A DNA stretch of 64,000 nucleotides from Candidatus Omnitrophota bacterium (lineage in GTDB: Bacteria > Omnitrophota > Gorgyraeia > VGKH01 > JBHPFN01). This document shows, one piece after another, positions 3,001 through 35,164 of this stretch (within the stretch, counting starts at the first letter, position 1; the number at the start of each line of letters is the position of its first letter). The stretch spans positions 507 to 64,506 of the forward strand of contig JBHPFN010000004.1 in assembly GCA_042571725.1 (NCBI GenBank). The letters run 5' to 3'. A program made the translations under genes and the position numbers. The notes beneath the pieces are model-generated. The model was not told where the DNA came from. It saw only the letters and a program-made list of their open reading frames with translations, and made no database searches.

Positions 3001-6000
3001 TTATCGGGGCAAAACCGGGCTGGGCAAGGGCAACAACGAAGTTGATTTACACATTCACTCAAAACCCTATTCTCCCGGAGCAACGCTGCTCTCCGAAAAG
3101 ATTGTGGATGAAGCAGTTGAAAGGGATTTAAAGGCCATTGCAGTTACCGATTACCATTCTTTGAGAGGCACGGTGAAAGCAATACGCTACGTTGAAGAAA
3201 AGGGATTGAATAGTAAGATTGAAATCATCCCCGGCGTTGAAATTGAGACAAAGGAAGGCTATCGTCTGCTGGTTTATTTTCCTGATGTTCAACGGTTTAG
3301 AACTCATTTCGATAGAATTGAAGCCACCATGCCCGAGATGGAGAAGAGGACCGCGCGAGAAGTTTTTCGGTGGGCCAACACTTCCGGTTTTGGCGGCGTT
3401 GCCATTTGTTCCCTTTCGGGCGAAGGTCAAAAACCGACCAACGAGCGAGAGATGGTTAAGCTCTTACGTCAAGGGTGTGACGGTTTTGAAGCAGATCACT
3501 CCTCATCCCGCAGCCGCAGCGTAGTTAATACCTTGATGATTCTTAATAACTGGAACTTTTTCTACCCTACTTTTGCTAAGATTATCACTGTGGGCAGCAA
3601 TTTTTATGACGGTCGTAAGCAAGAAATCGGCCGCGGATGGCCCGGTAGAAGAGACTTTAGACATGCGTACAGTTGGGGTTATGATTTAGTTGAGGATCTT
3701 AAGGCTCTGGCAAACCGTAAGATTCTTCAGCAAGAGCAGAGTGATGGCACGCTAGCCTTAGGCCCTGAATTCGATCTGCGTGAGTATCCTTATGTGTTAA
3801 ATTCTGCCAGACAGGTTGAGAGAAGTGCGACGCCGATGATTGACCTGCATGTGGTTTCTTCCTGTTCCCACAGGAAGCGTCCCTCGCCATTAGAGATTAT
3901 CGAATCAGTCTCACGCAGGGGAGTCAAAACAATTGCCTTTGCCGACATAGGGACTGCGCAAGGTGCCATAGATACAAAAGAGCTCGCTGCGGAAAGGGGA
4001 GTGGAGGTTATTCTCGCGGTTGAGATTCATACCAATGAGCTTGAGCATCTTCTTGTGTATTTTATTGAAGGAGCGCAGCGCATGTCTGCTGAGGATATCG
4101 AGATTCTCATTCAGCAATCCAAGAGAATGACCGTTGAAGAGACGATTAACTGGGCGCGTGCCTTAGGCGGCATTGCTCACCTGGCGCATCCGGGATGGTA
4201 CGGAGAACCGTTTGATATAGAGAGGTCCCGAGCCTGGTGTAATGCAGGTTTAGGCGGTTTTGAAGTTGACCACGGATTTTTTAGATCAAGAAATCGGCTG
4301 CCAATTATGGTGTTTCTTTTTAAACACAACCTATCAGAGATCTGGAAAAACCCCGATGGTTCAAGCCTTGATTTAAAAACCATGACCGTCGGCAGCGGCG
4401 GCAAAGGCATACCCTGCCAAGGCTGGGAACATAAAACACAATGGCCTGATGCTCCTTCGTACGGGCCTGGGGTTGTGGAGGCATTGAAGCGCAAGGCAGC
4501 AATGCAAAACGCACACGCAACAGAGAGCACAGCTTTGCCGGCAGCAGGCCAATCCGGAACAGGTGATGGAGTAAGTTGCTTTATGGGGATGGGATCCGGC
4601 GCATTAGACACCATATTAGGGACGTTTCTGAATTTGTTCAGAGAACTGTCCCTCATAGGGACACACTTAGCTTTAGCATCAGAAACGTCCCTAATTAGCT
4701 TTGGCGGGATGGTGTTGGGTGTGGCCATTGATGCTGATGACGAATGGAGAGAAGAGCTTGATCGAATAAATCATGAATTCAAGCAACTACAAAAGGAAGA
4801 AGGATTATCAACAGAAGAATATGTAGACAGAGCAAATATTTTAATCGTGGAGCTTGCAGAATATGCCAAAAAAGCTTGCATGGATATAAATGCGTTTCCT
4901 CTTTATGAGAAACTCCTTCTTTCAAAGCAAGAAAGGGTAAAGGCTGATCCGAAATACTATAGAGAAGGAAAAAGAATAGATCCTTATGAAGAAATTGCCA
5001 AACCGCTTGGAAGAGGTCCGATTTTTGTGTTTATTAATCCTTACTCACGCCCTTACGGCTTTTGGTTACCGACAAATATTTTCCATCTTTCTAATGAGTT
5101 AAGAGCTGCAGGTATCGCTCAAGGTCATTCATCTATTGCTTCTGGCGATGTAGTCAATGTATCTTCGGCTTCATTAGATGATGAAATAAGAAAAATGCGA
5201 AACTATTATGGAGACAGAGAATTGATTTATGGAATATCGACTAGTGAAACATTATATCCGGCATGCATGGAATTTGTAAAAGCAATAAGAAGGAATGAGC
5301 CAGAGTCCTTGGTTGTTCTAGGCGGACATATGGTTAATGCTGACCATGAAAACGTTGCCAAGCATGCAAGGCAACTAGGGGTAAATGTTTTAGTCAGAGG
5401 AGGAGCAAGGAATCTCCCTGAGTTAGTCAAGGCATTAATCGGCCAAAAAGCAAACGAGCCTATAGGAGCAGATTTAAGGAAATTTGTAGAAAGTCAACAG
5501 GGAGTATTGTTGCTTGCTGGCGGTAAAGAGGCAGAAGGAAGATATTATGATATTGGAAATGAAGCAGAGACCTATCCTGACTTAGAAAGCAGAGTCTTGC
5601 ATCCAAGCGTTGTAAGGTATGCGGCAGAACTTTCTGCAAAAGGTGCTTATCTTAAAGAAGAAGACAGAAGAACAATGACTATCCAGATAACTTCGGAGAT
5701 TGGATGTCCTTATGGGTGTGATTATTGCTCCGGTCCCTTTAGCAAGGTTAAATGTGTAAGCGCAGGAAAATTGATTGCTGAAATAGAAGAGATTATAGAC
5801 ATTCTAGGCCTTGAGAATGACATCGTTATTGAGCTTACAGGTGCAGACACACTGATCAATAAAAAACGAATAAGAGAGTTCTTAGATATTATTTTAACTG
5901 ATAAGAGGCAGCTTATTCCTTATCTGAAGAGATCAAAATGCACTGCATCTGTACGCTCATTCTATGTTGAAGGAAGATTGGATGAAGAGTTGATAGATAA

Positions 6001-24000: not shown

Positions 24001-27000
24001 TTGTCGGGCAATAAAAAATCATAGCGAATTAGCAAGGTTTCTTTCTGAGCAGGGACCACATGTAGGCGTTGAGATTATTGATTCCGATGAAACACAATTT
24101 AATCCTGCGAATTTTGCTGATTTATCCGAAGACCACCTACTCTTTAATTATGCCCCTCATTTGATTGGAAGATTACAGTTGAGAGAAGGTATGTATAGCA
24201 TGATTGATTCAGGAGTAAACGCATTGACTGCAATTACTACCTTGGGGGGTAGCATCGGTTGTCTTATGTCACGCACTCCCATAACTTCAGCATACCGACA
24301 CCAATTCGCAATAGCGGGAGAAGATCAAGTCAGCGTCAAGCGCTCAGGCGGCGGCGTAATGATGTCGATGTGGGGATTATTTACCACGCTTGCCGGTCTT
24401 TTTTCCGGTGGGATGGTATTGGGTGTGGCAAGCGGGTCAGATGATAGTCATCTCTCCTCGCCGGCACAGACTCTTTCACTCGATTCGATCTCAATCGAAC
24501 GTATTGAAGAAGATGCATATGACGCATTGACTGATGAAATAAACGCACTCATCGAGCCAAGCGCCCAATTTTATGATAATCCTCTCGGTCGAGCTGTATT
24601 GTTTCATCGTCTGTTATCTCAAGGTGATTATTTTACCTTATCCCTTTTTAATATTTGGGAGTTATTAATTAAAGGAAGAAAACTGGTTACTCAGGTTTTA
24701 ACGGCACGTTCGCCAGACGGTCAGCTATGCGGCATACACATGTTGAGTCTGGCAGATACAAGTCGCTATGTAGAAAAATATCCTATGCTAGCAGGGGAGC
24801 AACTTTTTGCAGCTACTGTGGCGGTGTTTCCTCAGGCACGAAGGTTGGGTTTGGGAAGTATGCTTACTCAGATAAGCTTGACTCTTGCTCATAGGCAAGA
24901 TAATGTGAGGCTCTTTAGATTTTCCGCTCTTAAAGGTAATGAGCTTTCAGGCAGAACTATGAATGCTGCAGCACGTACCCTGCAGGCAACACCTCAATAT
25001 CTCGGCGAGAGACATTCTAACCCAGGTGTTTTACTTGATGATTATCTATTGAGCATGAATGGAGATGCGCCATTTTCTGCTCGCGCTGAGGCTCTTTCTA
25101 AAGAAGAAGATAAGACAGGAAGGGGGGCAACGGCTTCGATGGGAGGATTGCTTACTACACTTACCGGCCTTTTCTCCGGCGGGATGGTGTTGGGTGTGGC
25201 AGCACTGACCTTTGTAAATGAGGCAGTACAGCACCAACTTTCTCTGGATGTATTAGACATAGTCAGTGCAGCACTGAAACTTGTATGCGAGGCAGTGCAG
25301 CACCCACTCAATTCAACACATATGGGTGCAGTGCCAACTTCCTTTGCCTATTTATTTGGAATAGTTGGTGCAGAAGCAGGTGAAGGTAACCCGTCGAAGA
25401 AAGCGACAAGAGAAGATTTAAAGCGTCGCGTAAGAGAAAAGAAAATCATATGGTCGCTGACCGATAAGCACAGAGATAAGCTTCCATTGCTTTTGGCTCT
25501 AGATATTATTCCGGGCTTATCAATCAGTGATGTCAGAATTAATCGAAATCGCTTTTTTCATTGGGTTACGACTGTCCGAATGATTGCTGACAGCATTCGG
25601 AGAAAAGAAGATGGATTGTTGTCGGCAGTTACGGATATTGGAGCAACATTATTTCTAGCTCACGCCAGAGCTGAAGCGGACATTTATATAGGCAGTAGGT
25701 CTATAACTCGGAAATCGATTACAGAGGGCCGAAAGATTGCTGCACAAGAAGGCCGAGAGATTTTGGTTTTAGTCTCAAGAGGTATGTATGCACTTAGAAA
25801 AAACATACTTGGACAACTTGAAAGATCTTGTCAGAGGGCTCAAGACAATGGTGCTGACGGAATAATTATTGAGCCATCGAGTAGAAAAGAGGACATTGCA
25901 AGTATCGTTACAGCGCTTAAGCGGAAATTTCCGCAGCTACTCATTGGTATCGGAGTTAGTGCAGGACTGACCGATGCTCATTTACTTTTCAAGGAAACAG
26001 AAGCTGATTTTATTATGATAAGGACTAACTGGATTTCTGATGAGCCTATTAAAGAAGCACCGAGGCTTCGCAGAGACGTTGACGAGGTGCTCGCAGAGAA
26101 AGGCGGAGCAGTTCATTCAACCTTAACGGGAATCACCACACTCACACAGGATATCATAGTAAAGAATCCCCGCACAGGTAAATATGGTAGATTTGCTGAA
26201 AGTCAACTATGCGACTGGAGAGATCCACTGATAGTCAGAACAGCAGAAGAGATTGTGCAGGGTGCAACAACCGATGCAGAAAAGGCGCGCAGGATTTGCG
26301 TATGGCTTAAAGAGAACATCGAATACCATCTTGGCCACGGAGCGTACTGGGATATGCCTGCTTCCGGAACACTCGCTACCCGAGATAAAGAACCTAATAA
26401 GGGTAAGATTAAAGCGCACTGTTTTAATTGTGCGAATATACAGGTTGCGATGTTACGTGCTGTAGGTGTTTTTGCACGTTACGCGTCCGTTGAGAGAGAG
26501 ATGGTTGCGGCTAAGAATTTACTTCCTTCGTGGGCATTAGCAAGGATGAGGATATTCAGACATATCTTTGCAGAGGTTTTTGTTGACGGAGCATGGCGCA
26601 GATTCGATGTTACCATGGATGATGATTTTGATACGCCCGGAGAGTGGGAAAAACATGATTCACCGGAGACGCAAGAAGAATACGCAATTTTAGATGCGTA
26701 TGCTTTCGAACAAGCCAAGAGAGATACCCATGCCGAGCGCGACGCAATCGACGATTTTCTTCAGGAAAGACTGCGAAGGCAATTAAGCCGCGGCGGGAGC
26801 CTTGCTACATTCTTTACTCAATGGAGAGAGTGGCATCCTGCTAGAGATGAAGAAGAAGCAAGGTTGCTTAAAGAAAGAGTAGTTTTATGCATTCAGCATT
26901 CGAGAGATGTCACATCGGAGTTTCGGGAAGCTTTAATAGCATTGCAAGAAGATGTGCTGAATTTCGTTTCGACATTCGGGTACACAGAAATTATGAGAGA

Positions 27001-27502
27001 TCCGAGACGAGGTCGGGGTGCGGTAGGATTACTTGCAGTTGTAGGATTTGATCCAGGCGATGGATTTAGAGCTATGCAGGACCGAATAATACAGGTGGTG
27101 CAGCGTGCTGAGTTACGCGTTCTTGATACAGGAGGTCCCTTTTTTAAAACCCCTGTTGGAGAAGCTGTGTTACTCGTAGGAGAAAGTAGTGGCCACACTA
27201 TTTTTTATATTACCAAACAATTTTTTCTTACGCTTAACGAACAGATTGCTGAAAGCTGGTTTTCTCCTTTAGGGACAATTTTTGCTCACGGTGCCTGTCG
27301 CGTCGCTGGATATACCGAAGCTCAGGCTAATGCCTATCATTTAGTAGTAAATAAAGAGATAGATCAGCTAGTGCAGGCTATATCTGTCGGTTCCGATTCA
27401 CAGACAAAAAGACATGGCGGCGGGAAGACCTCGCCTATTCCTGGCGAAGAAGATGAAGAGGCAAAGAAAGATGACGAGCACGTTGAGGAGGAAGAAAACT
27501 AA
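2..27502 (+). CDS. Giant multi-module ORF, 5' end off-window (9,166 sense codons visible): at least 18 heterogeneous enzyme/membrane modules joined by a recurring hydrophobic junction
   Basis: No stop in this frame from nt 2 to the TAA at 27500-27502. The 16 codons before the first ATG (SPTRDTRDSPQQGGGA) reproduce the pre-junction motif seen again at 7736-7780 and 15485-15530, so the ORF continues upstream. Each inter-junction block carries a different catalytic signature (see domain features). Confidence 0.9.
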   Translation, partial: SPTRDTRDSPQQGGGAMFVSFWPLLLLGGAALAGAHLFGAECLAYAGIPFLAKKGSGGRAKAKGLLGRGWERVTTFFSPPNIAQERSSDQIEERELELRNLDEGETITLKDGSNKKYRFTLLKKPKGMRGVLCYDPYLDGDEDKIMYFAKARDLDGGRNVLLLFNLQASQLSEEALSDRSRENIAFLAKVNHRNIAPNHVLKDSRGDIVVVIPYFPVQDPTHLRFYHRDKVSRFKDVLFRYLANCDRIEREDVIKLLDMIVGLADAFMCFIDDLEVVPGDFDFSIDESGVILLVPNYQGYTTLDYQRDKMEIERKLLEIMHGCIEAIEPFLPNEPRYHSLIHRALGILKNYRYFWDRSKSKTIGDLVVDLQSMRADFIAQDQTPGTFEPTYHDLLGQRRVPCRFSWQEDESFVSLEAKKAESWWELFGNASAHQKERELAIASSELLKVGVSISDFVRGKKVLSIGFGKCVGELGVLIEEYSEDASGIVGIEWERDLVVDAAQGLFNRFADASGDGVYRQRVLDKVRLFCEDAACLNEILEDNSVGFIYVANIFVNDFPISKNKKQAIFEEMMRILEDGGIVVLITTDDWVKEKLRETGTVICEQQALVVYQHSNQSAQETKPALDVAQMVSSWWPMVIPLGLGLLESFTGGITETTGLAVFVGIPFSLERILNGVNGIRGSPWLRKPKKIFRNRSTAIILGLLIVLNGIAPFPGKPSIAQNDIATLVFIINLIAGIMFLPLMQFMFNGRFIALSKDLTKKQWRDIIGHGLLIQGVVFPLFLLGLGLVSEKTFVIVTRLQPFLILLLGILWFKTDTFAWRKLIGFVSVTGTMALFLASKTSAGSSQMWGVIFVVLATIVGSVANCWRGKIVRVIENGALITVLSIWIGVVTGVLLAGLALIGYAIGFANPDILNELFSIHHVYPVISWQLIVYSLILGWGLFLNFEAHERNPAAPLTNLLSFAPVVTMIVFQAIHRTMPVSNEIVVVAIMILGTFLIKRSYRGKTGLGKGNNEVDLHIHSKPYSPGATLLSEKIVDEAVERDLKAIAVTDYHSLRGTVKAIRYVEEKGLNSKIEIIPGVEIETKEGYRLLVYFPDVQRFRTHFDRIEATMPEMEKRTAREVFRWANTSGFGGVAICSLSGEGQKPTNEREMVKLLRQGCDGFEADHSSSRSRSVVNTLMILNNWNFFYPTFAKIITVGSNFYDGRKQEIGRGWPGRRDFRHAYSWGYDLVEDLKALANRKILQQEQSDGTLALGPEFDLREYPYVLNSARQVERSATPMIDLHVVSSCSHRKRPSPLEIIESVSRRGVKTIAFADIGTAQGAIDTKELAAERGVEVILAVEIHTNELEHLLVYFIEGAQRMSAEDIEILIQQSKRMTVEETINWARALGGIAHLAHPGWYGEPFDIERSRAWCNAGLGGFEVDHGFFRSRNRLPIMVFLFKHNLSEIWKNPDGSSLDLKTMTVGSGGKGIPCQGWEHKTQWPDAPSYGPGVVEALKRKAAMQNAHATESTALPAAGQSGTGDGVSCFMGMGSGALDTILGTFLNLFRELSLIGTHLALASETSLISFGGMVLGVAIDADDEWREELDRINHEFKQLQKEEGLSTEEYVDRANILIVELAEYAKKACMDINAFPLYEKLLLSKQERVKADPKYYREGKRIDPYEEIAKPLGRGPIFVFINPYSRPYGFWLPTNIFHLSNELRAAGIAQGHSSIASGDVVNVSSASLDDEIRKMRNYYGDRELIYGISTSETLYPACMEFVKAIRRNEPESLVVLGGHMVNADHENVAKHARQLGVNVLVRGGARNLPELVKALIGQKANEPIGADLRKFVESQQGVLLLAGGKEAEGRYYDIGNEAETYPDLESRVLHPSVVRYAAELSAKGAYLKEEDRRTMTIQITSEIGCPYGCDYCSGPFSKVKCVSAGKLIAEIEEIIDILGLENDIVIELTGADTLINKKRIREFLDIILTDKRQLIPYLKRSKCTASVRSFYVEGRLDEELIDKLAQVFGVVQIGVESGDDEELVRWGKGVTWSQTEALFEAIERANKKHKTSFSVDMYAIASGLETRPRNLINSLANLLYAFLRYDCIGRTYVMSVVIPDIGSRVFVRLTDDDMRRMDPDYRRQYRILEELDCFLYEHVLPRDALVRSFFVGKKLREEVLGATRNEGCPRGLEAISIYEALWNFGYLCAEQRLRLTKEKEEGTNWNEEKQARLDELIDVIDLFNEKLSFMKRTGLKDKYDAIVEKYSEPDESQGRGGGAFISSWWPILILGGTTLVGAHFLGVQGAESAMMLPIFLKLRRRGPPFGRIRLAFNRAVEKIKNERDELVRKGFIGNQYWRDRDNIKDELMLVFFVTAAYSFLFKYVLEVFGGAPPSLSIANYIIIAIFIFLITLSASVGHPIFHIIHAYRINKRNKKAGIELPTAKQRISVLKRPFIVHNTITVLAIAAVMIVNNDILQGVFVFAAIIHFWRGAAARVSTDGYAIESLKKHGQAYDMLRDGFEDVVRDVRLGVMQRIGLLFPIAIEAEGRRWQVHPGTLGPFAEYVTSRIDALLSRGDRGSGEQDFDVAPPVPSAVEGLASDESTMDTRDSPREGGGVMMSMWGLFTTLAGLFFGGMVLGVAADADNDESATGNFWAEEEDVELTKVITLELYLNPRFRELRGLLSSLGIGRNFNKIHTGLRFARFLLHEEKAHPHVSVNALLSRARMLRIFIEMMREYFSAEEMVEIFALSYTGLFFSHQVEGAEEAISLHDNKLRETLYPNEIFNLGLDEKQFVPMALVVLSCLERLENPDNETTPGVETPTRRVVREFIDTTLNEYIPRLQQENQNIHQGAPFYPPYLGSAGWLIDWQEGARERSALLGDHCRYHAYQFGYSAIRQIGWGFSGGRIWNMISTHRHDYPAIVGFIEKHCRLASGRISLRLIKDVFQGGKAFPNLPMLEEFLTNRPTTTIDELMQCSSAPLITPYHIDTNRGGEIYVPIGFQLGREGFGMEHMKSKVAQRRIDLQELLGEMWLDTIIKVGVLPIIGMGLQVPAAQGERMFFFGKINPHRVRWLQQTRQEIGRFQPLSDETIDLLGNIYLQVVVGLVEDEHVRGYKGNVITAFPIVEPQEVAEQVLVSVKELDGRRALSRQSIYQHIVQPCNRLFRRWGVPFVIRRHKEGKRKYTLVPTNASTGSGIIASMWGIVILLSGFFSGGMVLGVAEGLGCSASLLPPMYTNAQEGNFVGRYSKIIEQEKGRVTADDVEELRRFSRLIPELLTLKSLRSCDGSALEVFDLLENNEFVVRWHDAVSMDADRGDSHCYCSVVIAGVRFILDLTAEQFETAPSEEEKYTFLGIVLIPARVAFELRERLDFYSMPDGCRGYTSTYVDWRKAQGYRVEYEEGNPELLENRNLAGMVSLICALEDIDPRVREAAQSLLDNSPYALIGPYRRRLLDPGVSWTISESVASFLLDEYFRYADNFDVPLPLFVVDGPSGIGKTTTAQEMVRVTGKGKIKYQLVYLNLDMFLKDQAWRHEIRDKIASGELHPDDFDERDFFDYDRIIAMLRDIDEFRRSGDETGVLVLTHVWNPEKGRYEDLQIPLTRNTVFLIDGKYAHEKRLRPFYGKHPFKVRLDEDDDSIGRKFEHRERAKGKSEEEVAKQMIFHDLVVLPHFRRYAQEPQENLFVLRCSHGEIPTEPLRDADVDSVERESRAAGGGAMMLMWGIFTTLTGLFSGGMVLGVAADADGGRKDDAVPPASGRVARLTDRFLGWLNERLFALQRIIGRRLSESRRLTAVWTNEEIALEGILQFSPAELEEQRQNIINRYIVPQRRLQYLPYESRLRGRNRWRWNDTVFVVLLEDGTQVTAHSSHIRGVLIKVVLEIENRIQLEERKRRRKLSDDEREEFIRQLTLVVASTDYLGEAVAIVARLMGVQAQIFLPQWASQGTIEALSQFGVSVDSHLPDYDVASAHARNFFELHANAILIDGAEDETKARGAAIAAMEMMHEWHKWIGYETIKAMARLIAKYEKMSLEAVIREYDYSELAQRWEDLEEQLKRRDHRHYTSVNEDVTMLSSAEAQPLLEELRQDEELLVELVRPIGLVPSQFVVVGGTGLDAAGTIEGLRRDNVPVTIVEPSGANPLYCSLTGREEGEPPILLRASETSAIGVRVRSVGHMPHAVLRKTLHRAVTVSEESVEEMRKFLSATGLDVEGTGALPHAAVVLERADLFDDDIILHVNSSRIDTELSQEELAHPKAKTVFFRIHPRLQELWLLVRGAIRVPRFSRIFFQRMRFQKIGGERQLARQVAAVYEETIQDILRRWDAIPEKEERLRGRMRQLMGLLVELDITDLSVFRLRPRHWIWLYQNTVLQGEQPAFVAQVRERVETICRITEVQDFTSLADAEFDGYGKKLKSLAREHSKTDFVQLEPKDLIDLFEHFSAGLPYDARQWIRHALDPLLWGRTQKNWGRAEAARDEIIESFNHDQEGVATAYYDRREAVPIDRLVPTQDLKAEFPGDDHAGIVKRLRRDIKGGLIVPITVFEIPGSDDYFLMWGGPRALAKYQEGHATINAFIVKVASPQEQTLQFLSQQMHLRCQEKGLASILDLFPDSPTRFLNKTLLYPPTAHRIERAIDSEEREFTPMTDFPIRGAHVRIATFRSEVQGAPLVFIHTRRAGDTLEIYFSLAAFILFRQVFSESARQDGLEMIVVYLSERLIRERSHTTASVAFETYSQRSARMKEARRRLRLLTQKAEKRNLTGDWRVTGSRGDREQPESMPVEEDDWSVVMHAYLIVRNAHLSADLPANRHEYEDVLARVTRSLSGRQFTITVDGRVILAYDAGLQQAPVVHDLWLTQRGRKVFYSAAGILFSEEEPFITIIGSATPTDRSEHDTDEFPRLVDDNEATDATPPERPEGDQPSGGGASCFVGIELFQLSLLGQLIQFAFGGLVLGVTVDADNNNISEGPPEHRWWDEQESPAFDVLEAQLEVQRRIMERLQERINGAIHGKFRLKSTPFVCAIFNIAHADALRIQVFLSEEERSRDPELADALASLGMSKGWIGIMDIVIATDIKMQPLLVISEVLVAKAYWRLRDRDKRKIKRWHKLLVSYFEAIKEEVGVAEVLKPTNGQMKSLPALQREFEERAHLPDAIDELYGRPSREYRDEEREILIWKYGGCTVKADFWVYREAFLVSDSSTRDTQDSPQKGDGNGIITSMWALFTTLAGIFSGGMVLGVASGSDGVGSPSLVSERGDSPLSISETKRRAYDELARRRKYDLGERPAMKEAAASIFGQAIPLDEVRGSKVLDVAIGAGLISGYAAENGAREIVGVDISSGMLKWADSNLAPFTSTATIRLIKGDILRLADLFRKEDGQVEKFEIITIGNVLSFYPPKERVAILSQALELLEEGGYIVLLYRSMDEVKNPLATLVYRRPMIPKITPDGYVEILENLARDLGYTVEAGFYAANYETDTDYNRQLSDLEVVVSHTMVLWAKRKPLAARNIGDLPTPAQPGGDDASCFMGMGLFQLGWLSQLFQFAFGGMVLGVAEGSGSFEQARGFTSYEYERYGLNLSDIPDEFACEPLAIIRIRENLSQRNWFWRHATPKIRERAIERIKTLMNKLEALQSLESFKNIIGDRKIVAIYTAGSYPWHDDPGDIDVHFVVRGERGFELIYLSAEEADELSIALEFTGRKMTRIALQIFGTTNLERAAQDIEIKDGGNLQRKLLTIYGNAVQLGGLDLFENSQPPANDFHILASCIRSLAVGSVREKRLREAEAIEDWLAEGITTPKMGVAEVGGFSSGVDIITIANQVAQRSGHAGSVALKIHAFLNRSNPDIHRHAVLLSRASKSSVPGMKRSKVPPNPVISIASAKYMLRAAAMRAGKTKYYDSSIPEESSNPEDSHSGGGAMFIFIWPVVILAALLAVPTIAWAGEFGKLIDTANSFYQWYAALLSTHTLIVKILTSAILLAIGDFIAQWTEKKSLRSLDKWRLIYMTILGGGYGIVWHVLFMLLEKGFPGRDLLSGVLPKLLIDQGPFTMFFHFLNFFMVGLFGGVGSFFATGVFTFTFEKYKDTIRKDYKLALFTNWLYWPTIQAVSYLIIPLDFRVLWVNIAFIFWAPILSKIGHGEWKAFTRKLARNPRSGGGAMMSIWGLFTTLAGLFSGGMVLGVAADAGDVSATADSHDYLILAEAQRLFEGEGIAHRVEEVIAFTGPQRAFIEYAISKLNQGYQLSDVVYLVESVRQTSFAHVEELLSDDRIIWYANRPKATIGTIIWHTVNCAYRDNIHQAHTLMYELGIAPSCLKGIIDAIGFIGIEDVRLWLTGREFPIRPSEIFRIAHLQKQSSMEEVKKALRSGTEYLRIQDDMTEPRCFSSIEEAIEVLGHEELKALRVSPQRPLRVSDVLYVVAVLKEYGADEVNFAMSFGVDPWKLQYVLKGLRSDREKWLSWLQERERYGRYKVTLNRAAQSRRALESFRTAEQHRREQRGFRLRLFDFEARIYPFSDYDPRAKADADEDFVLALYPSGSDSLRSPKKKTRKIGFHYPHGTIGGMRFKIINNEIIVCDVQSDIQEDLHRRYKYWYTMILVVLEDFAAEFSITRIIVPPAYAQFRLWAEQLYGPNPLTMFSFYARGYPAGDYSLRQMPDGAMHGLVAMPFAWTKGINARDELDVSTVERCFFELLEREIGQSAKEEAVRGGGAMVSMWGLFTTLAGLFSGGMVLGVAGGLDEARSSTPVETEKSRSQVLWNVAERLGSLTSIEERGACEDAFADALKTALARKEAMRLLDFIRSRARREPDENQPCPGFYYVRQDSQENLVLARFAEGDFLAAILGSKFAPPGNEQSVWYGNEAKDIMLYTNVNNNGYIVVFPSAAFNALANQGQAKHVTGLPDLEEWHYFYVKDDLPISGETTPLIFIGTGLSEKLEAAQSEDAQLREKLEALRKQVQIEVLDLTKQTMVDNLEAALARHGFKFVGKKFWPSWKVIIYNVLQVPEMSEITEKILRSEGEDSASVSSPGGDQPTGGGASLASDRLTDDRIFLQAVRDALHARPFVPEQLIRALKRDPEIRRLFETKAKSWISQRVRATLEARHPGAVKQWVLDTLEIHTLRVMHQFERYLAAEELPSGADLSMFRLLLALHDIGKPLTKGDEDTRKQYVHTQDTIKELRHKLPLPAEQIDLMMALLDGDPLGLYMQGSTAIEKTRTTIIGMNNRVKYPLADFFRLLTLYYQSDTLSYTLDAGYDSDWLAGLFVFDIEHSRFVFDDEAGRMKFSGEKESRFRALEESIVSLNVGHREIYPKGGGASCFVGIGLFQLGQLSQLGQLALSAVEGLFQFTFGGMVLGVASGSDESRSSSPARRNRRNDDAKRKLREAFERGEDIVIALSDRTPQAKLFAFDWDGIFAKEKGYFEKAWAALIVMIKNKTENINAGELSPEQVQEGEVFRRETRGMEYALRFDRLRAMALQSGADRSQLRTDQECADIFYEIIIRLAQQDFGEDLEDWIYPESKAFLINLKTDHPDRLTYVVTANIQNAFREIIVSRFSIKRYFDGIFGHPLRSSPDNIINKTTILTELRQRNGLGVNEVVFFGDAVSDIRFGREAGVIVVGVANTYENGVQLIDAGADIIVTSLAPRREIMQLLMDSSASSPTGEGKPTGGGAMVSIWGLLATLTGLFSGGMVLGVAADAKNDEGAAGDSETDTASSLMTVRTFSTGRHSFQIVSTPHDTEFGIDLSVPHEGREECEIGIHLWRFARLAEFFMDSYRGNMENGPGYLEQWMRTHDIVTTFLDEDEHRLLCGERLTLLGRQTTVEDRELLEKNFIPELLGFIVTIASNDEIREQFLRICNEELVRWSDPYIRSHFIPAEIQTVIQQFQGGLRGLGNVKPLDVEIMQVLRILSRRRLPVRKFFMYERDTRWARDEKLLLPHLEGEPYYFVFPGEGEFDKDETHLFERGAVVSGIARTPFLIYADSVDVQEVEALGRYARENIPGYEALSVYRLPAGWATFQFGNKIYLLDNAHLDCVSGYIPRRFSHRNENILLLDPHYCRAIKNHSELARFLSEQGPHVGVEIIDSDETQFNPANFADLSEDHLLFNYAPHLIGRLQLREGMYSMIDSGVNALTAITTLGGSIGCLMSRTPITSAYRHQFAIAGEDQVSVKRSGGGVMMSMWGLFTTLAGLFSGGMVLGVASGSDDSHLSSPAQTLSLDSISIERIEEDAYDALTDEINALIEPSAQFYDNPLGRAVLFHRLLSQGDYFTLSLFNIWELLIKGRKLVTQVLTARSPDGQLCGIHMLSLADTSRYVEKYPMLAGEQLFAATVAVFPQARRLGLGSMLTQISLTLAHRQDNVRLFRFSALKGNELSGRTMNAAARTLQATPQYLGERHSNPGVLLDDYLLSMNGDAPFSARAEALSKEEDKTGRGATASMGGLLTTLTGLFSGGMVLGVAALTFVNEAVQHQLSLDVLDIVSAALKLVCEAVQHPLNSTHMGAVPTSFAYLFGIVGAEAGEGNPSKKATREDLKRRVREKKIIWSLTDKHRDKLPLLLALDIIPGLSISDVRINRNRFFHWVTTVRMIADSIRRKEDGLLSAVTDIGATLFLAHARAEADIYIGSRSITRKSITEGRKIAAQEGREILVLVSRGMYALRKNILGQLERSCQRAQDNGADGIIIEPSSRKEDIASIVTALKRKFPQLLIGIGVSAGLTDAHLLFKETEADFIMIRTNWISDEPIKEAPRLRRDVDEVLAEKGGAVHSTLTGITTLTQDIIVKNPRTGKYGRFAESQLCDWRDPLIVRTAEEIVQGATTDAEKARRICVWLKENIEYHLGHGAYWDMPASGTLATRDKEPNKGKIKAHCFNCANIQVAMLRAVGVFARYASVEREMVAAKNLLPSWALARMRIFRHIFAEVFVDGAWRRFDVTMDDDFDTPGEWEKHDSPETQEEYAILDAYAFEQAKRDTHAERDAIDDFLQERLRRQLSRGGSLATFFTQWREWHPARDEEEARLLKERVVLCIQHSRDVTSEFREALIALQEDVLNFVSTFGYTEIMRDPRRGRGAVGLLAVVGFDPGDGFRAMQDRIIQVVQRAELRVLDTGGPFFKTPVGEAVLLVGESSGHTIFYITKQFFLTLNEQIAESWFSPLGTIFAHGACRVAGYTEAQANAYHLVVNKEIDQLVQAISVGSDSQTKRHGGGKTSPIPGEEDEEAKKDDEHVEEEEN
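38..124 (+). repeat. Junction J0 (type B): GGGA-MFVSFWPLLLLGGAALAGAHLFGAE
   Basis: In-frame ggc ggc ggc gca followed by atg at 50 and a hydrophobic WP-containing helix. Closely resembles J3 and J10. Basic flank follows (KKGSGGRAKAK). Confidence 0.8.
1379..1790 (+). other. Module 1 domain: class I SAM-dependent methyltransferase-like
   Basis: Motif I-like KKVLSIGFGKCVGELG, then GIEWERDLV, FIYVANIF and post-III ILEDGGIVVLIT. Confidence 0.5.
1889..1963 (+). repeat. Junction J1 (type B variant, no GGG): MVSSWWPMVIPLGLGLLESFTGGIT
   Basis: SSWWP core shared with J3 (ISSWWPILILGG). Leads into the polytopic membrane domain. GIPF shortly after, as in J0. Confidence 0.6.
1889..3000 (+). other. Module 2 domain: polytopic membrane region (about 9-10 hydrophobic segments, EamA/DMT-like impression)
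   Basis: A run of about 20-aa hydrophobic segments separated by short K/R loops (AIILGLLIVLNGIAPF, LVFIINLIAGIMFLPL, LLIQGVVFPLFLLGLGLV and others). Family assignment is tentative. Confidence 0.5.
3041..3620 (+). other. Module 2 domain: PHP (polymerase/histidinol-phosphatase) phosphoesterase, copy 1
   Basis: VDLHIHSKPYSPGA...AIAVTDYHSL...IIPGVEIETKEGYRLLVYF matches the canonical PHP N-terminal DLHxHS / TDH / GxE pattern. Confidence 0.6.
3836..4400 (+). other. Module 2 domain: PHP-like domain, copy 2 (more divergent)
   Basis: MIDLHVVSSCSH...KTIAFADIGTAQG...ILAVEIHTNELEHLLVYF...HLAHPGWYG parallels copy 1. Confidence 0.45.
4562..4741 (+). repeat. Junction J2 (type C, long): GDGVSCFMGMG...SLISFGGMVLGVAIDADD
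   Basis: SCFMGMG start and FGGMVLGVA end shared with J7, J9 and J13. Contains the exact 20-mer gggatggtgttgggtgtggc at 4706-4725. Confidence 0.8.
5218..6215 (+). other. Module 3 domain: B12-binding-like domain + radical SAM core
   Basis: CxxxCxxC at 5705-5728 (CPYGCDYC), preceded by a Rossmann-like LVVLGGHMVNADHE...VLVRGGARNLPELV segment, as in B12-binding (class B-type) radical SAM enzymes. GVESGDDEEL downstream. Confidence 0.65.
6758..6853 (+). repeat. Junction J3 (type B): GGGA-FISSWWPILILGGTTLVGAHFLGVQGAE
   Basis: ggc ggc ggg gcg then a hydrophobic WWP helix, near-identical in pattern to J0. Followed by a basic stretch (LKLRRRGPPFGRIR) and a membrane module. Confidence 0.8.
6854..7400 (+). 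other. Module 4: small membrane domain of unknown family (about 4 hydrophobic segments)
   Basis: LMLVFFVTAAYSFLFKYVLEVFGG, IANYIIIAIFIFLITLSASVG, ITVLAIAAVMIVNN, GVFVFAAIIHFW. Confidence 0.4.
7769..7864 (+). repeat. Junction J4 (type A): GGGV-MMSMWGLFTTLAGLFFGGMVLGVA-ADAD
   Basis: Prototype junction. ATG directly after the G-run (7781). Exact 20-mer present. Acidic flank ADADNDE. Confidence 0.9.
9506..9589 (+). repeat. Junction J5 (type A variant): GSGIIASMWGIVILLSGFFSGGMVLGVA
   Basis: SMWG...SGGMVLGVA retained. The 20-mer has 2 mismatches (ggcatggtgttgggggtggc). Confidence 0.8.
10379..10985 (+). other. Module 6 domain: P-loop kinase (uridine kinase/phosphoribulokinase-like)
   Basis: Walker A GPSGIGKTT at 10397-10423 followed by YLNLDMFLKD and VFLIDGKYA, the pattern of the PRK/uridine kinase family. 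Confidence 0.45.
11063..11158 (+). repeat. Junction J6 (type A): GGGA-MMLMWGIFTTLTGLFSGGMVLGVA-ADAD
   Basis: ggc ggc ggg gcg atg atg. Exact 20-mer. Acidic flank ADADGG. Confidence 0.9.
11393..12660 (+). other. Module 7 domain: PLP fold-type II (Trp-synthase-beta/threonine dehydratase superfamily)-like
   Basis: VVASTDYLGEAVAIVARLMGVQAQIFLP, and the VVVGGTGLDAAGTIEGL glycine loop. The expected SFKxRG lysine position reads SSHIRG (11525-11542). Confidence 0.45.
13409..13645 (+). other. Module 7 domain: ParB/sulfiredoxin-like N-terminal domain
   Basis: VPIDRLVPTQD...IVKRLRRDIKGGLIVPITVFEIPGSDDYFLMWGGPRALA...INAFIV resembles the ParB-like nuclease fold pattern (l.P...R, Pi.v, G.hR..A). Confidence 0.4.
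14666..14779 (+). repeat. Junction J7 (type C): GGGA-SCFVGIELFQLSLLGQLIQFAFGGLVLGVT-VDAD
   Basis: Preceded by GDQPS (ggagatcaaccc, also at 20933). The 20-mer has 2 mismatches. Confidence 0.85.
15521..15622 (+). repeat. Junction J8 (type A): GDGNGIITSMWALFTTLAGIFSGGMVLGVA-SGSD
   Basis: Preceded by SSTRDTQDSPQK (the TRDT-DSP pre-junction element). The 20-mer has 1 mismatch. Confidence 0.85.
15812..16150 (+). other. Module 9 domain: class I SAM-dependent methyltransferase
   Basis: KVLDVAIGAGLISGY (motif I), EIVGVDISSGML (motif II), ITIGNVLSFY, LEEGGYIVLL. Confidence 0.6.
16436..16540 (+). repeat. Junction J9 (type C): GGDDASCFMGMGLFQLGWLSQLFQFAFGGMVLGVA
   Basis: Type C pattern. Exact 20-mer. 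Followed by EGSGS. Confidence 0.85.
16808..17110 (+). other. Module 10 domain: nucleotidyltransferase (Pol-beta-fold)-like
   Basis: IVAIYTAGSYPWHDDPGDIDVHFVV matches the GS...(D/E)xD signature of minimal NTases. Confidence 0.4.
17267..17281 (+). repeat. Junction scar J9b: only the 3' end retained (MGVAE)
   Basis: tgggtgtggcagagg equals the last 15 nt of the J9 region (the preceding base differs, atg vs ttg). No GGG and no hydrophobic helix upstream. Confidence 0.5.
17609..17695 (+). repeat. Junction J10 (type B): GGGA-MFIFIWPVVILAALLAVPTIAWAGE
   Basis: ggc ggt ggg gcg atg ttt. Parallels J0 (GGGAMFVSFWP). Leads into the Mpv17/PMP22-like membrane module. Confidence 0.8.
17730..18270 (+). other. 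Module 11 domain: Mpv17/PMP22-family membrane protein-like
   Basis: WYAALLSTHTLIVKILTSAILLAIGDFIAQ...LLIDQGPFTMFF...NWLYWPTIQAVSYLIIPLDFRVLWVNIAFIFWAPILS tracks the family consensus as I recall it. Confidence 0.55.
18320..18418 (+). repeat. Junction J11 (type A): GGGA-MMSIWGLFTTLAGLFSGGMVLGVA-ADAGD
   Basis: Exact 20-mer. ATG directly after the G-run (18332). Confidence 0.9.
19973..20071 (+). repeat. Junction J12 (type A): GGGA-MVSMWGLFTTLAGLFSGGMVLGVA-GGLDE
   Basis: The G-run is ggcggaggagca (contains GGAGGA) immediately before ATG 19985. Exact 20-mer. Confidence 0.9.
20927..20965 (+). repeat. Junction scar J12b: only the 5' half retained (PGGDQPTGGGASL), no hydrophobic helix
   Basis: ggagatcaacccaccggcggcggggca is near-identical to the 5' half of J7 (14651-14677), but it runs straight into the soluble HD module. 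Confidence 0.6.
21187..21600 (+). other. Module 14 domain: HD phosphohydrolase
   Basis: EIHTLRVM...LLLALHDIGKP, with the HD doublet at 21296-21301. Confidence 0.55.
21776..21925 (+). repeat. Junction J13 (type C, longest): GGGA-SCFVGIGLFQLGQLSQLGQLALSAVEGLFQFTFGGMVLGVA-SGSDE
   Basis: Type C pattern with an internal QLGQLSQLGQL expansion. Exact 20-mer. Confidence 0.9.
22052..22710 (+). other. Module 15 domain: HAD-superfamily hydrolase
   Basis: Motif I FDWDG (DxD at 22064-22072), motif II VVTAN, motif IV FFGDAVSDI. Confidence 0.6.
22838..22930 (+). repeat. Junction J14 (type A): GGGA-MVSIWGLLATLTGLFSGGMVLGVA-ADA
   Basis: The G-run ggcggaggggcg (contains GGAGG) sits before ATG 22850. The 20-mer has 1 mismatch (gta for gtg). 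Confidence 0.9.
23650..24290 (+). other. Module 16 domain: guanidino-group modifying enzyme superfamily (amidinotransferase/arginine-deiminase/DDAH-like)
   Basis: AHLDCV (23921-) resembles the MHLDT motif. FNPANFADLSEDHLLFN. C-terminal GGSIGCLMS with the candidate catalytic Cys at 24260-24262. Confidence 0.5.
24347..24445 (+). repeat. Junction J15 (type A): GGGV-MMSMWGLFTTLAGLFSGGMVLGVA-SGSDD
   Basis: Peptide almost identical to J4. The 20-mer has 1 mismatch. ATG at 24359. Confidence 0.9.
24640..24965 (+). other. Module 17 domain: GNAT acetyltransferase-like
   Basis: VAVFPQARRLGLGSMLTQ resembles GNAT motif A (Q/RxxGxG). Confidence 0.45.
25118..25204 (+). repeat. Junction J16 (type A variant): GRGATASMGGLLTTLTGLFSGGMVLGVAA
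   Basis: Exact 20-mer. W replaced by G. No acidic flank (ALTF follows). Confidence 0.8.
26275..26625 (+). other. Module 18 domain: transglutaminase-like cysteine protease core
   Basis: KAHCFNCANIQVAMLRAVGVFARY (Cys at 26420-26422), then HIFAEVFVDGAWRRFDVT, giving the Cys-His-Asp arrangement of the TGase-like core. Confidence 0.55.
27416..27424 (+). repeat. Terminal GGG boundary motif (KRHGGG) followed only by a 25-aa acidic tail and the stop
   Basis: ggc ggc ggg in frame. The context basic-residue + GGG matches the 5' half of the junctions. No hydrophobic helix follows (KTSPIPGEEDEEAKKDDEHVEEEEN*). Confidence 0.5.
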
Positions 27503-28062: not shown

Positions 28063-28160
28063 CTCACCAATCACTACTGAAAGCCTGAGTTTTTCGACAC
28101 GAAAGAAGGTATGTGTACATCTCTATGTACGCATCGGGTCATCCATAAGGAGTGATCGAA

Positions 28161-31107: not shown

Positions 31108-31230
31108 ATTTCCTATTTAAGCGCTTTCTTAGCGCAATCCTGCGTAACTTATTTTATTGTAATAATTACTGGCAAAATCTTCAAAAATATGCTATACTAT
31201 AGGTACATTAGAATCATAAAATAGAAATTC

Positions 31231-31258
31231 AAAAGGGTCAGAGGTTGACCCTTTTTTA
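31231..31258 (+). terminator. Intrinsic terminator downstream of the phosphorylase gene
   Basis: aaaagggtca (31231-40) pairs perfectly with tgaccctttt (31246-55), 5-nt loop, T-run follows. Confidence 0.6.
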
Positions 31259-33293: not shown

Positions 33294-33296
33294 CGT

Positions 33297-35111: not shown

Positions 35112-35164
35112 AAAAACGTTTCATCTAGAAACGTTGTTTTAATTGAAAGGAGAAGCGTTAATCT

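Follow-up and report, generated by a model that had tools for sequence, protein, structure and literature searches.

The 64-kb window, the whole stretch of DNA that was analysed, opens with the 3′ part of a giant gene, followed on the same strand by the features listed below.

2..27502, + strand: 3′ part of the giant ORF, open to the 5′ edge of the window and ending with TAA at 27500-27502
27733..28062, + strand: PilZ-domain gene, directly downstream of the giant gene
28152..28541, + strand: second PilZ-domain gene
28675..39071, + strand: GH94, sugar ABC importer (a solute-binding protein, SBP_bac_1/8, and two permeases, BPD_transp_1), MFS_2 transporter and GH2/TPR protein

A single ORF is called at 50..27502, whose 9,150 aa are a lower bound: the frame is open from base 2 of the window, giving at least 9,166 codons, and upstream of base 50 it reads SPTRDTRDSPQQGGGA followed by MFVSFWP, a further module junction. 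Since the frame is open to base 2 with another junction there, the gene must be cut by the window edge. The window therefore holds its 3′-terminal part, at least 27.5 kb, and the N-terminal part and the upstream locus fall outside. Among 185,579 species genomes, the top ~35 matches of the class II RNR gene were from Omnitrophota, with Planctomycetes-labelled MAGs interleaved, at 63-72% identity, the best Omnitrophota MAG matches being 63-70% identical, and those in other phyla had identities of 60% or less. [quoted passage not shown] 2023, bioRxiv 10.1101/2023.11.21.568195); GH2 has also been reported to flank them (Nielsen & Lui 2026, bioRxiv 10.64898/2026.06.07.730766). Because of the best RNR matches and the downstream order of PilZ, glycoside hydrolase and importer genes, the locus appears to be of the Omnitrophota giant-gene type, a phylum call that draws on one marker gene and the locus architecture.

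The encoded chain consists of at least 18 mutually unrelated modules placed head to tail, 15 of them with soluble enzyme folds and three integral-membrane, with 17 leaders in the 9,150 aa.

50..1894, + strand: M01, WWP-type leader, protein-kinase-like region, weak Rossmann methyltransferase
1895..4594, + strand: M02, WWP-type leader, EamA/DMT-like multi-TM transporter module, two PHP phosphoesterase domains
4595..6754, + strand: M03, long SCF-type leader, B12-binding-like domain, radical SAM domain (CX3CX2C at 5705-5728)
6755..7774, + strand: M04, WWP-type leader and multi-TM membrane module; orphan, no family
7775..9499, + strand: M05, MWG-type leader and 540-aa orphan module
9500..11074, + strand: M06, MWG-type leader, orphan N-terminal domain, P-loop kinase-like domain (Walker A 10397-10423)
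11075..14674, + strand: M07, MWG-type leader, fold-type II PLP domain, unassigned C-terminal domains
14675..15529, + strand: M08, SCF-type leader and 250-aa orphan module
15530..16444, + strand: M09, MWG-type leader and class I SAM methyltransferase (motif I 15818-15841)
16445..17614, + strand: M10, SCF-type leader and nucleotidyltransferase-like module (GS..DxD 16835-16879)
17615..18319, + strand: M11, WWP-type leader and Mpv17/PMP22-family membrane module (E=3e-13)
18320..19984, + strand: M12, MWG-type leader and 520-aa orphan module
19985..20959, + strand: M13, MWG-type leader and orphan module with one standalone homolog (P0041, 32% identity)
20960..21784, + strand: M14, HD/HDIG phosphohydrolase (HD 21293-21313), the sole module without its own leader
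21785..22843, + strand: M15, extra-long SCF-type leader and HAD phosphatase
22844..24349, + strand: M16, MWG-type leader and orphan module with amidinotransferase/ADI-like C-terminal motifs
24350..25129, + strand: M17, MWG-type leader and weak GNAT-like module (RRLGLGS 24839-24859)
25130..27499, + strand: M18, MWG-like leader, weak TIM-barrel-like region and transglutaminase-like Cys-protease core, ending in HGGGK and an acidic tail

In self-BLAST the similarity between modules is limited to the 30-40 aa of the leader, the module bodies being unrelated. At each boundary a C-terminal polar or acidic low-complexity spacer leads to x-G-G-G-(A/V), and the leader of the next module, except that of M14, follows. 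This modular structure is far beyond chance expectation. Ten different Pfam families tile the chain at E<=0.01, a count in which AAA_18 is marginal and EamA (M02) and HD lie just under Pfam's own cut-offs; PHP alone is duplicated and no family dominates. At E<=0.01 Pfam assigns no family to nine of the 18 modules, and M12 is not covered by any of the 150 matches listed of an exhaustive search. Since all NCBIfam matches are far under the curated cut-offs, with 5-15% of the cut-off scores, they are read at superfamily level only.

Profiles identified the two PHP domains of M02 (E=4e-16; nt ~3044-4500), the radical SAM domain of M03 (PF04055, E=7e-12, with CPYGCDYC in place), the PLP domain of M07 (PALP, E=1.3e-25; Thr/Ser dehydratase- or racemase-like), the SAM methyltransferase of M09 (E=4.8e-12), the HD/HDIG module M14 (E ~1e-4; 622 homologs in an exhaustive search), the HAD phosphatase of M15 (E=6.5e-8; DxD at 22061-22075, GDxxxD at 22637-22654) and the Transglut_core of M18 (E=2.4e-12), with the triad AHC(8791)FNCA at 26414-26434, H(8838)IFAEV at 26561-26578 and RRFD(8853) at 26594-26608. 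Weak matches were obtained for the B12-binding domain of M03, the M01 methyltransferase (Methyltransf_11, E=0.2), the P-loop kinase of M06 (AAA_18/PRK, E=0.009-0.03; Walker A GPSGIGKTT), the GNAT fold of M17 (E ~0.1 in Pfam, E=1.2 against PDB) and the NTase of M10. The GS..DxD motif of M10 is invariant in two homologs, and its structure model, at pLDDT 40 a poor one (both predictions made lie at pLDDT 36-40), matches ANT(4′) nucleotidyltransferases (E ~3e-3). Three calls come from the reading of motifs: the kinase-like region of M01 (HRNIAPNH and GDFDFS, with Asn in place of the HRD catalytic Asp), a ParB-like WGGPRALA in the C-terminal part of M07 (13571-13594) and a guanidino-modifying enzyme in M16 (AHLD...GGSIGCLMS, the latter at 24245-24271). 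The recognised modules mostly keep intact catalytic motifs. In M07, the Schiff-base Lys appears to be replaced by His (SSHIRG at 11525-11542), and the second PHP domain of M02 lacks the second His of HxH; these changes, together with HRD to HRN in M01, may mark some modules as catalytically impaired.

The first-pass annotation had listed a set of modifying enzymes between 4742 and 27415. That observation is largely real, and profiles bear out the radical SAM, PLP, HD, HAD, transglutaminase-like, M09 methyltransferase and two PHP modules, with the PHP domains and the second methyltransferase lying outside that range. The P-loop kinase, GNAT, NTase and second methyltransferase returned as weak matches, and the ParB-like and guanidino-modifying calls found no confirmation in profile or structure searches. 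That list lacked the three modules integral to the membrane (EamA, Mpv17/PMP22 and a multi-TM module of no assigned family) and five orphans (M04, M05, M08, M12 and M13). Its view that the repertoire is not a coherent housekeeping function holds: the cofactor-dependent enzyme folds are diverse, the matches remain at superfamily level and the analysis supports no recognisable housekeeping pathway.

Kyte-Doolittle hydropathy gives numerous TM or signal-like segments, namely the 17 leaders and the three polytopic modules. The conserved hydrophobic leader (...SMWGLFTTLAGLFSGGMVLGVA...) opens 17 of the 18 modules, M14 being the exception, and comes in three related types, WWP, SCF and MWG. Thirteen leaders have in common an invariant GxxxGGxxxG-type core, G-LFS-GG-MVL-GV, and the 20-nt linker core GGGATGGTGTTGGGTGTGGC, which encodes G-MVLGVA, is present in 13 copies against 0 expected.

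4706..4725, + strand: linker core copy 1, GGGATGGTGTTGGGTGTGGC
7832..7851, + strand: copy 2
9569..9588, + strand: copy 3, 2 mismatches
11126..11145, + strand: copy 4
14747..14766, + strand: copy 5, 2 mismatches
15590..15609, + strand: copy 6
16520..16539, + strand: copy 7
18383..18402, + strand: copy 8
20036..20055, + strand: copy 9
21890..21909, + strand: copy 10
22901..22920, + strand: copy 11
24410..24429, + strand: copy 12
25181..25200, + strand: copy 13

The linker core is conserved at the codon level, minority codons being kept in 11-13 of the 13 copies, and the upstream half of the leader has pN=0.19 against pS=0.43, a codon pattern that shows purifying selection on the predicted leader peptide. 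The leader core was not found in any database searched. The hydrophobic stretch is 20-24 aa long, is single rather than a hairpin and sits internally in the chain, with 1-2 K/R within 15 aa upstream, an acidic downstream flank and, following GVA, the triplets ADA, SGS, EGS or AGG, which give small residues at -3/-1. In every MWG-type leader the charges run the same way, K/R before and acidic after, an arrangement that looks like a cleavable Sec signal and would put the modules outside the cytoplasm. As the leader is one stretch and forms no hairpin, an intact chain with every module in the cytoplasm is not topologically straightforward.

The tripeptide GGG occurs 13 times in the protein, against 4.4 expected; 12 of the 13 are at junctions or in the C-terminal HGGGK, and the remaining one lies within a TM helix.

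38..46, + strand: GGG junction upstream of M01, which shows that the ORF extends 5′ of the window
Starts at 6758, 7769, 11063, 14666, 17609, 18320, 19973, 20948, 21776, 22838, 24347 and 27416, + strand: other GGG junctions

The sequence directly after a junction is the same as the apparent N-terminus of the protein. The regular pattern of leader and GGG is a new element, which offers candidate processing points along the predicted chain.

Taking these features together, we consider it probable that the region is the 3′-terminal part of an Omnitrophota giant gene of the "multi-enzyme" class, encoding a beads-on-a-string (poly)protein that works as a membrane array. In the model, the leader would target each module to the inner membrane and hold it there, and the small-xxx-small motifs would let the leader helices pack together. 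In this way strongly diverged modifying enzymes, with SAM, B12/Fe-S, NTP, acetyl-CoA and PLP folds plus PHP/HD/HAD phosphoesterases, would be arrayed on the membrane beside transporter-like modules. Processing would most likely fall at the GGG junctions, where the cut may be made by M18, the Cys protease module of transglutaminase (papain-like) fold at the C-terminus, or by a C39-type peptidase whose coding sequence lies more upstream. The analysis shows the modular anatomy, the fold assignments given above, the type of locus and the lack of toxin or pathway signatures; that the leaders target the membrane, that their helices pack, that the chain is cut and on which face of the membrane the modules act is what we infer.

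A more far-reaching form of this model, which we put forward tentatively and think unlikely, is a bacterial polyprotein in the true sense. Cutting at the x-GGG|(A/V) junctions by one or the other of these peptidases would release at least 18 leader-bearing proteins, each inserted or exported, and the core GGGATGGTGTTGGGTGTGGC would serve as a recombination joint for gain, loss and shuffling of modules. M18 does place within the chain a protease fold with an intact catalytic triad, whose activity may be that of a protease, a transglutaminase or a deamidase; this transglutaminase-like module matches no known processing protease. If true, the strategy of viral polyproteins would take the place of an operon, and explicit sites of cleavage and shuffling would be at hand for the first time for the giant proteins of Omnitrophota, whose cleavage points have been stated as unknown (West-Roberts et al. 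2023). It is a recognised puzzle whether the Omnitrophota giants are one chain or many products, what they do and which face of the membrane carries their metabolic-looking domains. With the unusual regularity found here, in which a single 35-aa leader and a single junction motif recur beside one protease-like module, the question becomes open to simple experiments.

The same leaders can be read as export signals, as had been suggested earlier together with an effector or toxin kit acting inside another cell. In that scenario, Sec-type leaders, GGG cutting and signal peptidase I cleavage after GVA-x-x would release enzymes to work on or inside a host or prey cell that supplies SAM, ATP and acetyl-CoA. 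The leader has Sec-like features: K/R precede its hydrophobic core, the residues at -3/-1 are small and the early mature region is acidic. Standalone homologs exist elsewhere for M10, M13 and M14, and of the two for M10 (P0001 and P0002), P0001 starts with KIKKYYNFICIGFVFLIVLFTCALSCLALA followed by EKH, thus having its own N-terminal signal-like sequence. In the published view many domains of Omnitrophota giant proteins are extracellular and the phylum is predatory or episymbiotic, with which the earlier guess of a host-dependent or predatory lifestyle agrees, and the T2SS/T4P-like locus usual upstream of such genes would suit export. However, Pfam and PADLOC gave no match to any family of toxins, effectors, MARTX, Rhs/CDI or defence systems, a methyltransferase-like match being all that PADLOC returned, and the 64-kb window contains neither a secretion system nor an immunity-like gene. 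The hydrophobic stretch exceeds that of typical cleavable signal peptides, three modules are polytopic membrane proteins and 65 of the 67 standalone members of the HD family are leaderless. Moreover, the radical SAM/B12 module needs cytoplasmic loading of Fe-S and cofactor, and the leaders, as read, are without a twin-arginine motif; an Fe-S/B12 radical SAM enzyme is not expected to function after Sec export. The possible catalytic impairment of the PALP, second PHP and kinase-like regions would also speak against delivered enzymes. The effector kit, which fits existing speculation on the phylum, is thus not supported here at the family level, and we regard it as unlikely; the practical message is a modest one. 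Its most useful part is the comparison with MARTX, by which putative cleavage would separate the modules.

Evenly spaced single TM segments that Sec inserts co-translationally take an alternating topology by default. The chain might accordingly never be cut, its leaders alternating as signal-anchor and stop-transfer segments and its modules between cytoplasm and periplasm, as TM predictors give for the published Omnitrophota giants. But the polarity of the leader flanks is uniform, not alternating, and neighbouring modules dependent on SAM, NTP or acetyl-CoA (M09/M10, M16/M17) would face opposite sides, localisations that West-Roberts et al. (2023) themselves judge "highly unlikely". We find this intact polytopic protein improbable.

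The other function proposed earlier, a fused pathway of natural-product tailoring, would have one small molecule serve as the scaffold for each module in turn, with export of the product through the transporter modules. The B12-radical SAM methylase-like, methyltransferase, PLP, HAD, kinase, NTase, GNAT and EamA exporter modules resemble tailoring sets, and the best NCBIfam matches of M03 are PhpK/BchE-type B12 radical SAM enzymes, at 32 bits against a cut-off of 600 for the PhpK type. Such scores are the rule for all matches, no pathway-specific family is among them, and the 64-kb window contains no PKS, NRPS, terpene, RiPP-precursor or sugar-nucleotide core gene. The PLP module is seemingly without its catalytic lysine, and the HD module recurs in many unrelated combinations: it is also part of other proteins, 1,800-6,500 aa long, that have no second module in common with the giant protein. 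The missing pathway-level match weakly refutes this very unlikely reading.

It would be just as surprising if the chain were an operon written in one frame, in which the GGG-Ala-Met junctions (GGC GGA GGR GCR ATG) were Shine-Dalgarno-like sites and starts, the modules being made also by internal initiation. ATG directly follows GGG(A/V) at 8 of 17 junctions, often with two or three Met codons, GGAGG stands 4 nt ahead of ATG at two of them, and AGGAG/GGAGG-type sites precede the genuine genes of the window. Most junctions, however, have no good SD core or too short a spacing, the SCF-type and several others have no Met, and, the modules not being separated by any stop codon, ribosomes from upstream would read through. 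That the region is an assembly chimera or an array of decaying pseudogenes is hardly credible: the proteins of the window and the leader are absent from all collections searched, but 9,166 sense codons in a row in 44% GC DNA, the low pN of the leader relative to its pS, the catalytic motifs kept in most recognised modules and a context in agreement with published giant-gene loci all argue against it.

The membrane-array (poly)protein that we favour can be set beside several known systems. With MARTX it has in common a very large size, several unrelated enzyme modules, a cysteine protease module and the idea of inter-module cleavage. It differs in having no RTX-type glycine-rich repeats, Peptidase_C80 CPD or known MARTX effector domain (no Pfam match to the repeats or to Peptidase_C80 in any module, in the unassigned ones even at E<=5), and no type I secretion genes lie in the 36 kb downstream; here the modules, some of them polytopic membrane proteins, each stand behind a hydrophobic leader. 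Polymorphic toxins (Rhs, CdiA, LXG) repeatedly use the NTase, GNAT, HD, kinase and transglutaminase/deamidase folds. These toxins bear one variable tip, whereas the present chain has many modules, and a C-terminal toxin with a downstream immunity gene is absent: the last module is the transglutaminase-like core with its acidic tail and the next genes are PilZ. None of the trafficking or repeat domains of those toxins (RHS/YD, FHA, PAAR, LXG) is found in the part of the chain inside the window.

Gly-Gly(-Gly) at unit boundaries and a papain-clan-like Cys protease fold within the chain recall viral polyproteins, ubiquitin-like precursors and C39 double-glycine leaders, and the C-terminal unit closes, as in polyubiquitin, with GGG and a short tail. 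Unlike in those systems, the protease-like module is a transglutaminase core and not C39, PLpro or DUB, and the units are predicted membrane-targeted bacterial enzymes.

Closer analogues are two multi-enzyme proteins found through the HD module, P0042 (4,929 aa, JGI 3300029288) and P0070 (3,189 aa, GCA_028713715.1). In them unrelated modules (methyltransferases, GNAT, acyl-CoA dehydrogenase, APS-kinase-like, HD) are set apart by a recurring hydrophobic linker, whose motif GLFSFIGGC is similar to the GLFSGGM of the giant protein. Their linker, however, is a lipobox-like signal sequence (..L-I-G-G-C|APxQ) with a second TM helix 10-20 aa later, which makes a hairpin, so that the modules stay on one side of the membrane. 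In the giant protein the Cys and the second helix are absent and GGG stands ahead of the leader; homology is confined to the HD module.

The nearest counterparts are the Omnitrophota giants described as "multi-enzyme metabolic cluster" or Archaeovorin-type. In their "multi-enzyme" class, methyltransferase, GNAT, HAD, HD and radical SAM domains recur, with about one TM helix per 370 aa (Nielsen & Lui 2026), and SecA_DEAD and C39 domains are expected near the N-terminus of such giants. In the part of the chain inside the window (aa 1-9150) no SecA_DEAD, C39, HEAT, GT or GGDEF domain was found. The phylum is the same by best marker matches, and the ORF, of at least 9 kAA, is longer than 7,000 aa, the lower of the minimum sizes (7,000-10,000 aa) that mark such giants. 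The same five kinds of Pfam domain tile one chain, very divergent from their families, with a hydrophobic segment every few hundred residues, and downstream PilZ comes at once, ahead of solute-binding proteins, ABC importers and glycoside hydrolases, GH2 among them. The published descriptions of these giants mention neither a uniform repeated leader nor a GGG junction; this kind of giant protein has already been described, and the regularity of its leader and junction is what is new.

The giant gene is read as a single ORF on the + strand (window 50 to 27502, 9,150 aa). In window 2-49, 5' of the first ATG, the frame carries no stop and reads SPTRDTRDSPQQGGGA followed directly by MFVSFWP (given also as ...TRDTRDSPQQGGGA before MFVSFWP), a junction of the same type as those within the protein. 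The gene therefore begins 5' of the window and the 9,150 aa are a lower bound; with the frame open upstream, the protein start taken in the first-pass annotation is not a genuine one. Thirteen GG(M/L)VLGV(A/T) leaders and four related WWP-type leaders split the chain into about 18 modules, 235-1,200 aa long. In a self-comparison of the protein the modules had nothing in common except the leader of 30-40 aa; their bodies are unrelated, which rules out internal paralogy. All genes in window 1-58136, from the giant ORF through that of an M28 peptidase, lie on the + strand, and the GC skew keeps a positive sign over the whole interval; both fit a long block of co-oriented genes on the leading strand.

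At the end of each module stands a polar spacer rich in S/T/D/E/P and then x-G-G-G-(A/V); the sequence that comes next is similar to the apparent N-terminal residues of the protein. GGG occurs 13 times, versus 4.4 expected; 12 of these are junctions or the C-terminal HGGGK, and the other lies within a TM helix. After the commonest leader, (A)MMSMWGLFTTLAGLFSGGMVLGVA, come ADA, SGS or EGS and then a series of acidic residues. This leader is moderately hydrophobic (hydropathy 1.6-1.9 over 19 aa) and carries small-xxx-small motifs in tandem (G-LFS-G, G-MVL-G). It is preceded by 1-2 K/R, and on its downstream side the net charge ranges from 0 to -5 in the copies scored, mostly <= -2. A sorting signal of the sortase, exosortase or GlyGly-CTERM type was rejected for the GGG and TM unit, the flank past the helix being acidic and not basic. 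A lipoprotein signal was likewise discarded, since the leaders lack Cys; the single exception is a lipobox-like GLGC after the M06 leader (window 9590-9601, aa 3181-3184).

Purifying selection acts on the leader peptide (pN 0.19 and pS 0.43 in its upstream half; pS about 0.6 in the flanks). On top of this there is conservation at the nucleotide level: in the core GGG-ATG-GTG-TTG-GGT-GTG identical minority codons are used in 11-13 of the 13 copies, while synonymous sites elsewhere in the leader diverge normally. The 20-mer GGGATGGTGTTGGGTGTGGC has 13 sites, from window 4706 to 25200, all confined to the giant ORF, versus 0 expected. Candidate explanations are nucleotide-level constraint, local gene conversion, a recombination joint, a translational pause site or an RNA element. 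The leader profile had no match in protein clusters, 185,579 species genomes or JGI metagenomes, and the exact 23-nt core had none in metagenomes.

Folds were assigned with Pfam and NCBIfam profiles, and the catalytic motifs were then located in the sequence.

Modules of the giant ORF (+ strand, numbered 5' to 3')
M01: second methyltransferase, weak match (E=0.2)
M02: two PHP domains (E=4e-16); EamA/DMT-like transporter region
M03: radical SAM (E=7e-12, CPYGCDYC) with a weak B12-binding domain
M04: further polytopic module
M06: P-loop kinase, weak match (E=0.009-0.03)
M07: fold-type II PLP domain (E=1.3e-25)
M09: class I SAM methyltransferase (E=4.8e-12)
M11: Mpv17/PMP22 membrane module (E=3e-13)
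M14: HD/HDIG (E about 1e-4)
M15: HAD (E=6.5e-8), with DxD and GDxxxD
M17: GNAT, weak match (Pfam E about 0.1, PDB E=1.2)
M18: transglutaminase-like core (E=2.4e-12), with Cys, His and Asp

The heterogeneous, grab-bag character first attributed to the repertoire is thus borne out by the diversity of enzyme folds. From the original module list, the profiles uphold the radical SAM, M09 methyltransferase, HD, HAD, transglutaminase-like and two PHP assignments, the last lying 5' of the stretch that the list covered; the P-loop kinase, GNAT, NTase and second methyltransferase are weakly backed. The list had overlooked the transporter region of M02, M04, M11 and five orphan modules. The ParB-like (C-terminal part of M07) and guanidino-modifying (M16) calls found no profile, PDB or structural backing and are motif readings, the latter from an M16 C-terminal pattern, AHLD...N...GGSIGC, that resembles the amidinotransferase/ADI superfamily. 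At relaxed thresholds, Pfam returned noise alone for the still unassigned portions of M01, M03-M08, M10, M12, M13 and M16-M18, with ParB, amidinotransferase/ADI, protein kinase and NTase families all absent. A PDB sequence search with a composite of M10, M12, M13, M16 and M17 gave the GNAT match as its sole result, and one with the transglutaminase-like region of M18 gave none; M16-M17 and three linkers found no homolog at E<=1e-3 among 5.8 billion clusters. The single-sequence prediction for M16 (pLDDT 36.1) is too poor to trust, and a clan CE assignment from its Foldseek matches (PopP2/YopJ, NopD and SENP5, probability <=0.5) was disregarded.

M10 is a weakly supported NTase. Two homologs with 51% identity keep the GS..DxD motif unchanged, and Foldseek with an AlphaFold model from three sequences, itself too poor to trust (pLDDT 39.9), placed ANT(4') kanamycin nucleotidyltransferases on top (E about 3e-3, TM about 0.2), with cGAS, CdnC and NF90 ranking next. 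A standalone M10 homolog (51% identity; JGI 3300048653, locus L081, 1-982) has its own signal-like N-terminus, KIKKYYNFICIGFVFLIVLFTCALSCLALA before EKH, and has TP_methylase and GHL10 genes downstream; this orphan family therefore occurs outside giant proteins too. As judged from motifs, catalytic losses are possible in three places: the M07 PLP domain, with SSHIRG versus the expected Schiff-base motif SFKxRG (window 11525-11542; His in place of Lys, in an uncertain alignment), the second PHP copy of M02, with HVV in place of HxH and thus lacking the second His (window 3842-3859), and a kinase-like region of M01, with HRN versus HRD (window 575-598).

An exhaustive search with M12-M14 gave 622 relatives, nearly all of the HD module. 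The 149 HD matches fetched comprise 67 standalone proteins, about 220 aa in length and all except two without a hydrophobic N-terminus, and 82 cases in which the module forms part of a longer protein; seven of these proteins exceed 3,000 aa. No fetched HD-containing protein has a second module in common with the giant protein, and a shared multi-module architecture was hence rejected. The HD module thus occurs in varied combinations, and such combinatorial use of modules speaks against a fixed pathway.

The genes 3' of the giant ORF encode ordinary Gram-negative functions, namely GH94, a sugar ABC importer, an MFS transporter, GH2/TPR, ROK and LacI, together with a B12-type uptake system, a class II ribonucleotide reductase (RNR), iPGM and peptidases.

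Features downstream of the giant ORF
27733-28062, + strand: small PilZ-domain (c-di-GMP receptor) gene
28152-28541, + strand: second small PilZ-domain gene
45878-46074: cobalamin riboswitch (RF00174, 90 bits)
48740-48972: cobalamin riboswitch (RF00174, 81 bits)
51517-53781, + strand: B12-dependent class II RNR

The PilZ pair lies directly 3' of the giant gene; next come genes for glycoside hydrolases, for a solute-binding protein and for ABC permeases. One riboswitch precedes a BtuF-like/FecCD/ABC transporter and the other a TonB-dependent receptor; together with the RNR they form an island of B12 uptake and use, and M03 likewise has a B12-binding-like radical SAM module. Searched against 185,579 species genomes, the RNR has its best matches in Omnitrophota MAGs (63-70% identity). 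For three proteins encoded near the giant gene in the window, exact look-ups gave no record. The host-dependent or predatory lifestyle originally guessed agrees with publications on Omnitrophota.

Modular anatomy, folds, type of locus and lack of toxin or pathway signatures are, as a whole, best explained by a membrane-bound multi-enzyme (poly)protein from an Omnitrophota giant gene, a reading that we consider reasonably probable. In the model, each module would be taken to the inner membrane by its leader. The chain would probably be processed, or else the leaders would lie as monotopic anchors, because: (i) the identical polarity of all leaders would not allow a simple intact polytopic chain, and (ii) in an alternating arrangement, neighbouring modules that depend on SAM, NTP and acetyl-CoA would end up across the membrane from one another. 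The GGG junctions would be the best candidate cleavage sites. Candidate proteases are the module of transglutaminase (papain-like) fold at the C-terminus and a peptidase of the C39 type, which would be expected close to the N-terminus, outside the window; processing at these junctions is a tentative element that we rate somewhat short of probable. The modules may reside on either side of the membrane. The cytoplasmic face is favoured by the radical SAM module with its Fe-S/B12 needs, by the use of cytoplasmic cofactors, by the presence of polytopic modules and by an HD family whose members mostly lack a leader. Export is favoured by Sec-like leader features and the signal-like N-terminus of the M10 homolog. 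An exported effector kit is an unlikely reading of the protein. The toxin kit proposed at first is unsupported: toxin, effector, RTX, C80, Rhs/YD, PAAR/LXG and defence families were not detected in the modules, the sole PADLOC match is methyltransferase-like, and the visible 36 kb downstream contain no immunity-like gene or secretion system. Its alternative, a fused tailoring pathway, fares no better, as all NCBIfam matches score a small fraction of the curated cut-offs, and are therefore superfamily-level only, and no scaffold-forming biosynthetic gene is present.

PilZ genes, then glycoside hydrolases, solute-binding proteins and ABC permeases, lie downstream of most Omnitrophota giant genes (West-Roberts et al. 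2023, bioRxiv 10.1101/2023.11.21.568195), an arrangement common to the present locus; GH2 flanks of giant genes, and a "multi-enzyme metabolic cluster" class of giant proteins, have been described by Nielsen & Lui 2026 (bioRxiv 10.64898/2026.06.07.730766). The protein therefore belongs to an already described kind, and what is new is its undescribed, unusually regular leader/junction system, which opens to experiment the question of one chain or many products. Two multi-enzyme chains reached through the HD module are analogous to it: P0070 (L083, GCA_028713715.1 JAQTNU010000046.1) and P0042 (L084, JGI 3300029288 Ga0265297_10007696), both with repeated internal lipoprotein-like signals, L-I-G-G-C|APxQ. 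Unlike that of the giant protein, their linker combines the lipobox-like signal (..LIGGC|APxQ) with a second TM helix to form a hairpin, and is perhaps processed by signal peptidase II. Since these chains also separate their modules with a recurring linker, repeated signal-like linkers seem to be a general design of such proteins, of which the giant protein has its own version.
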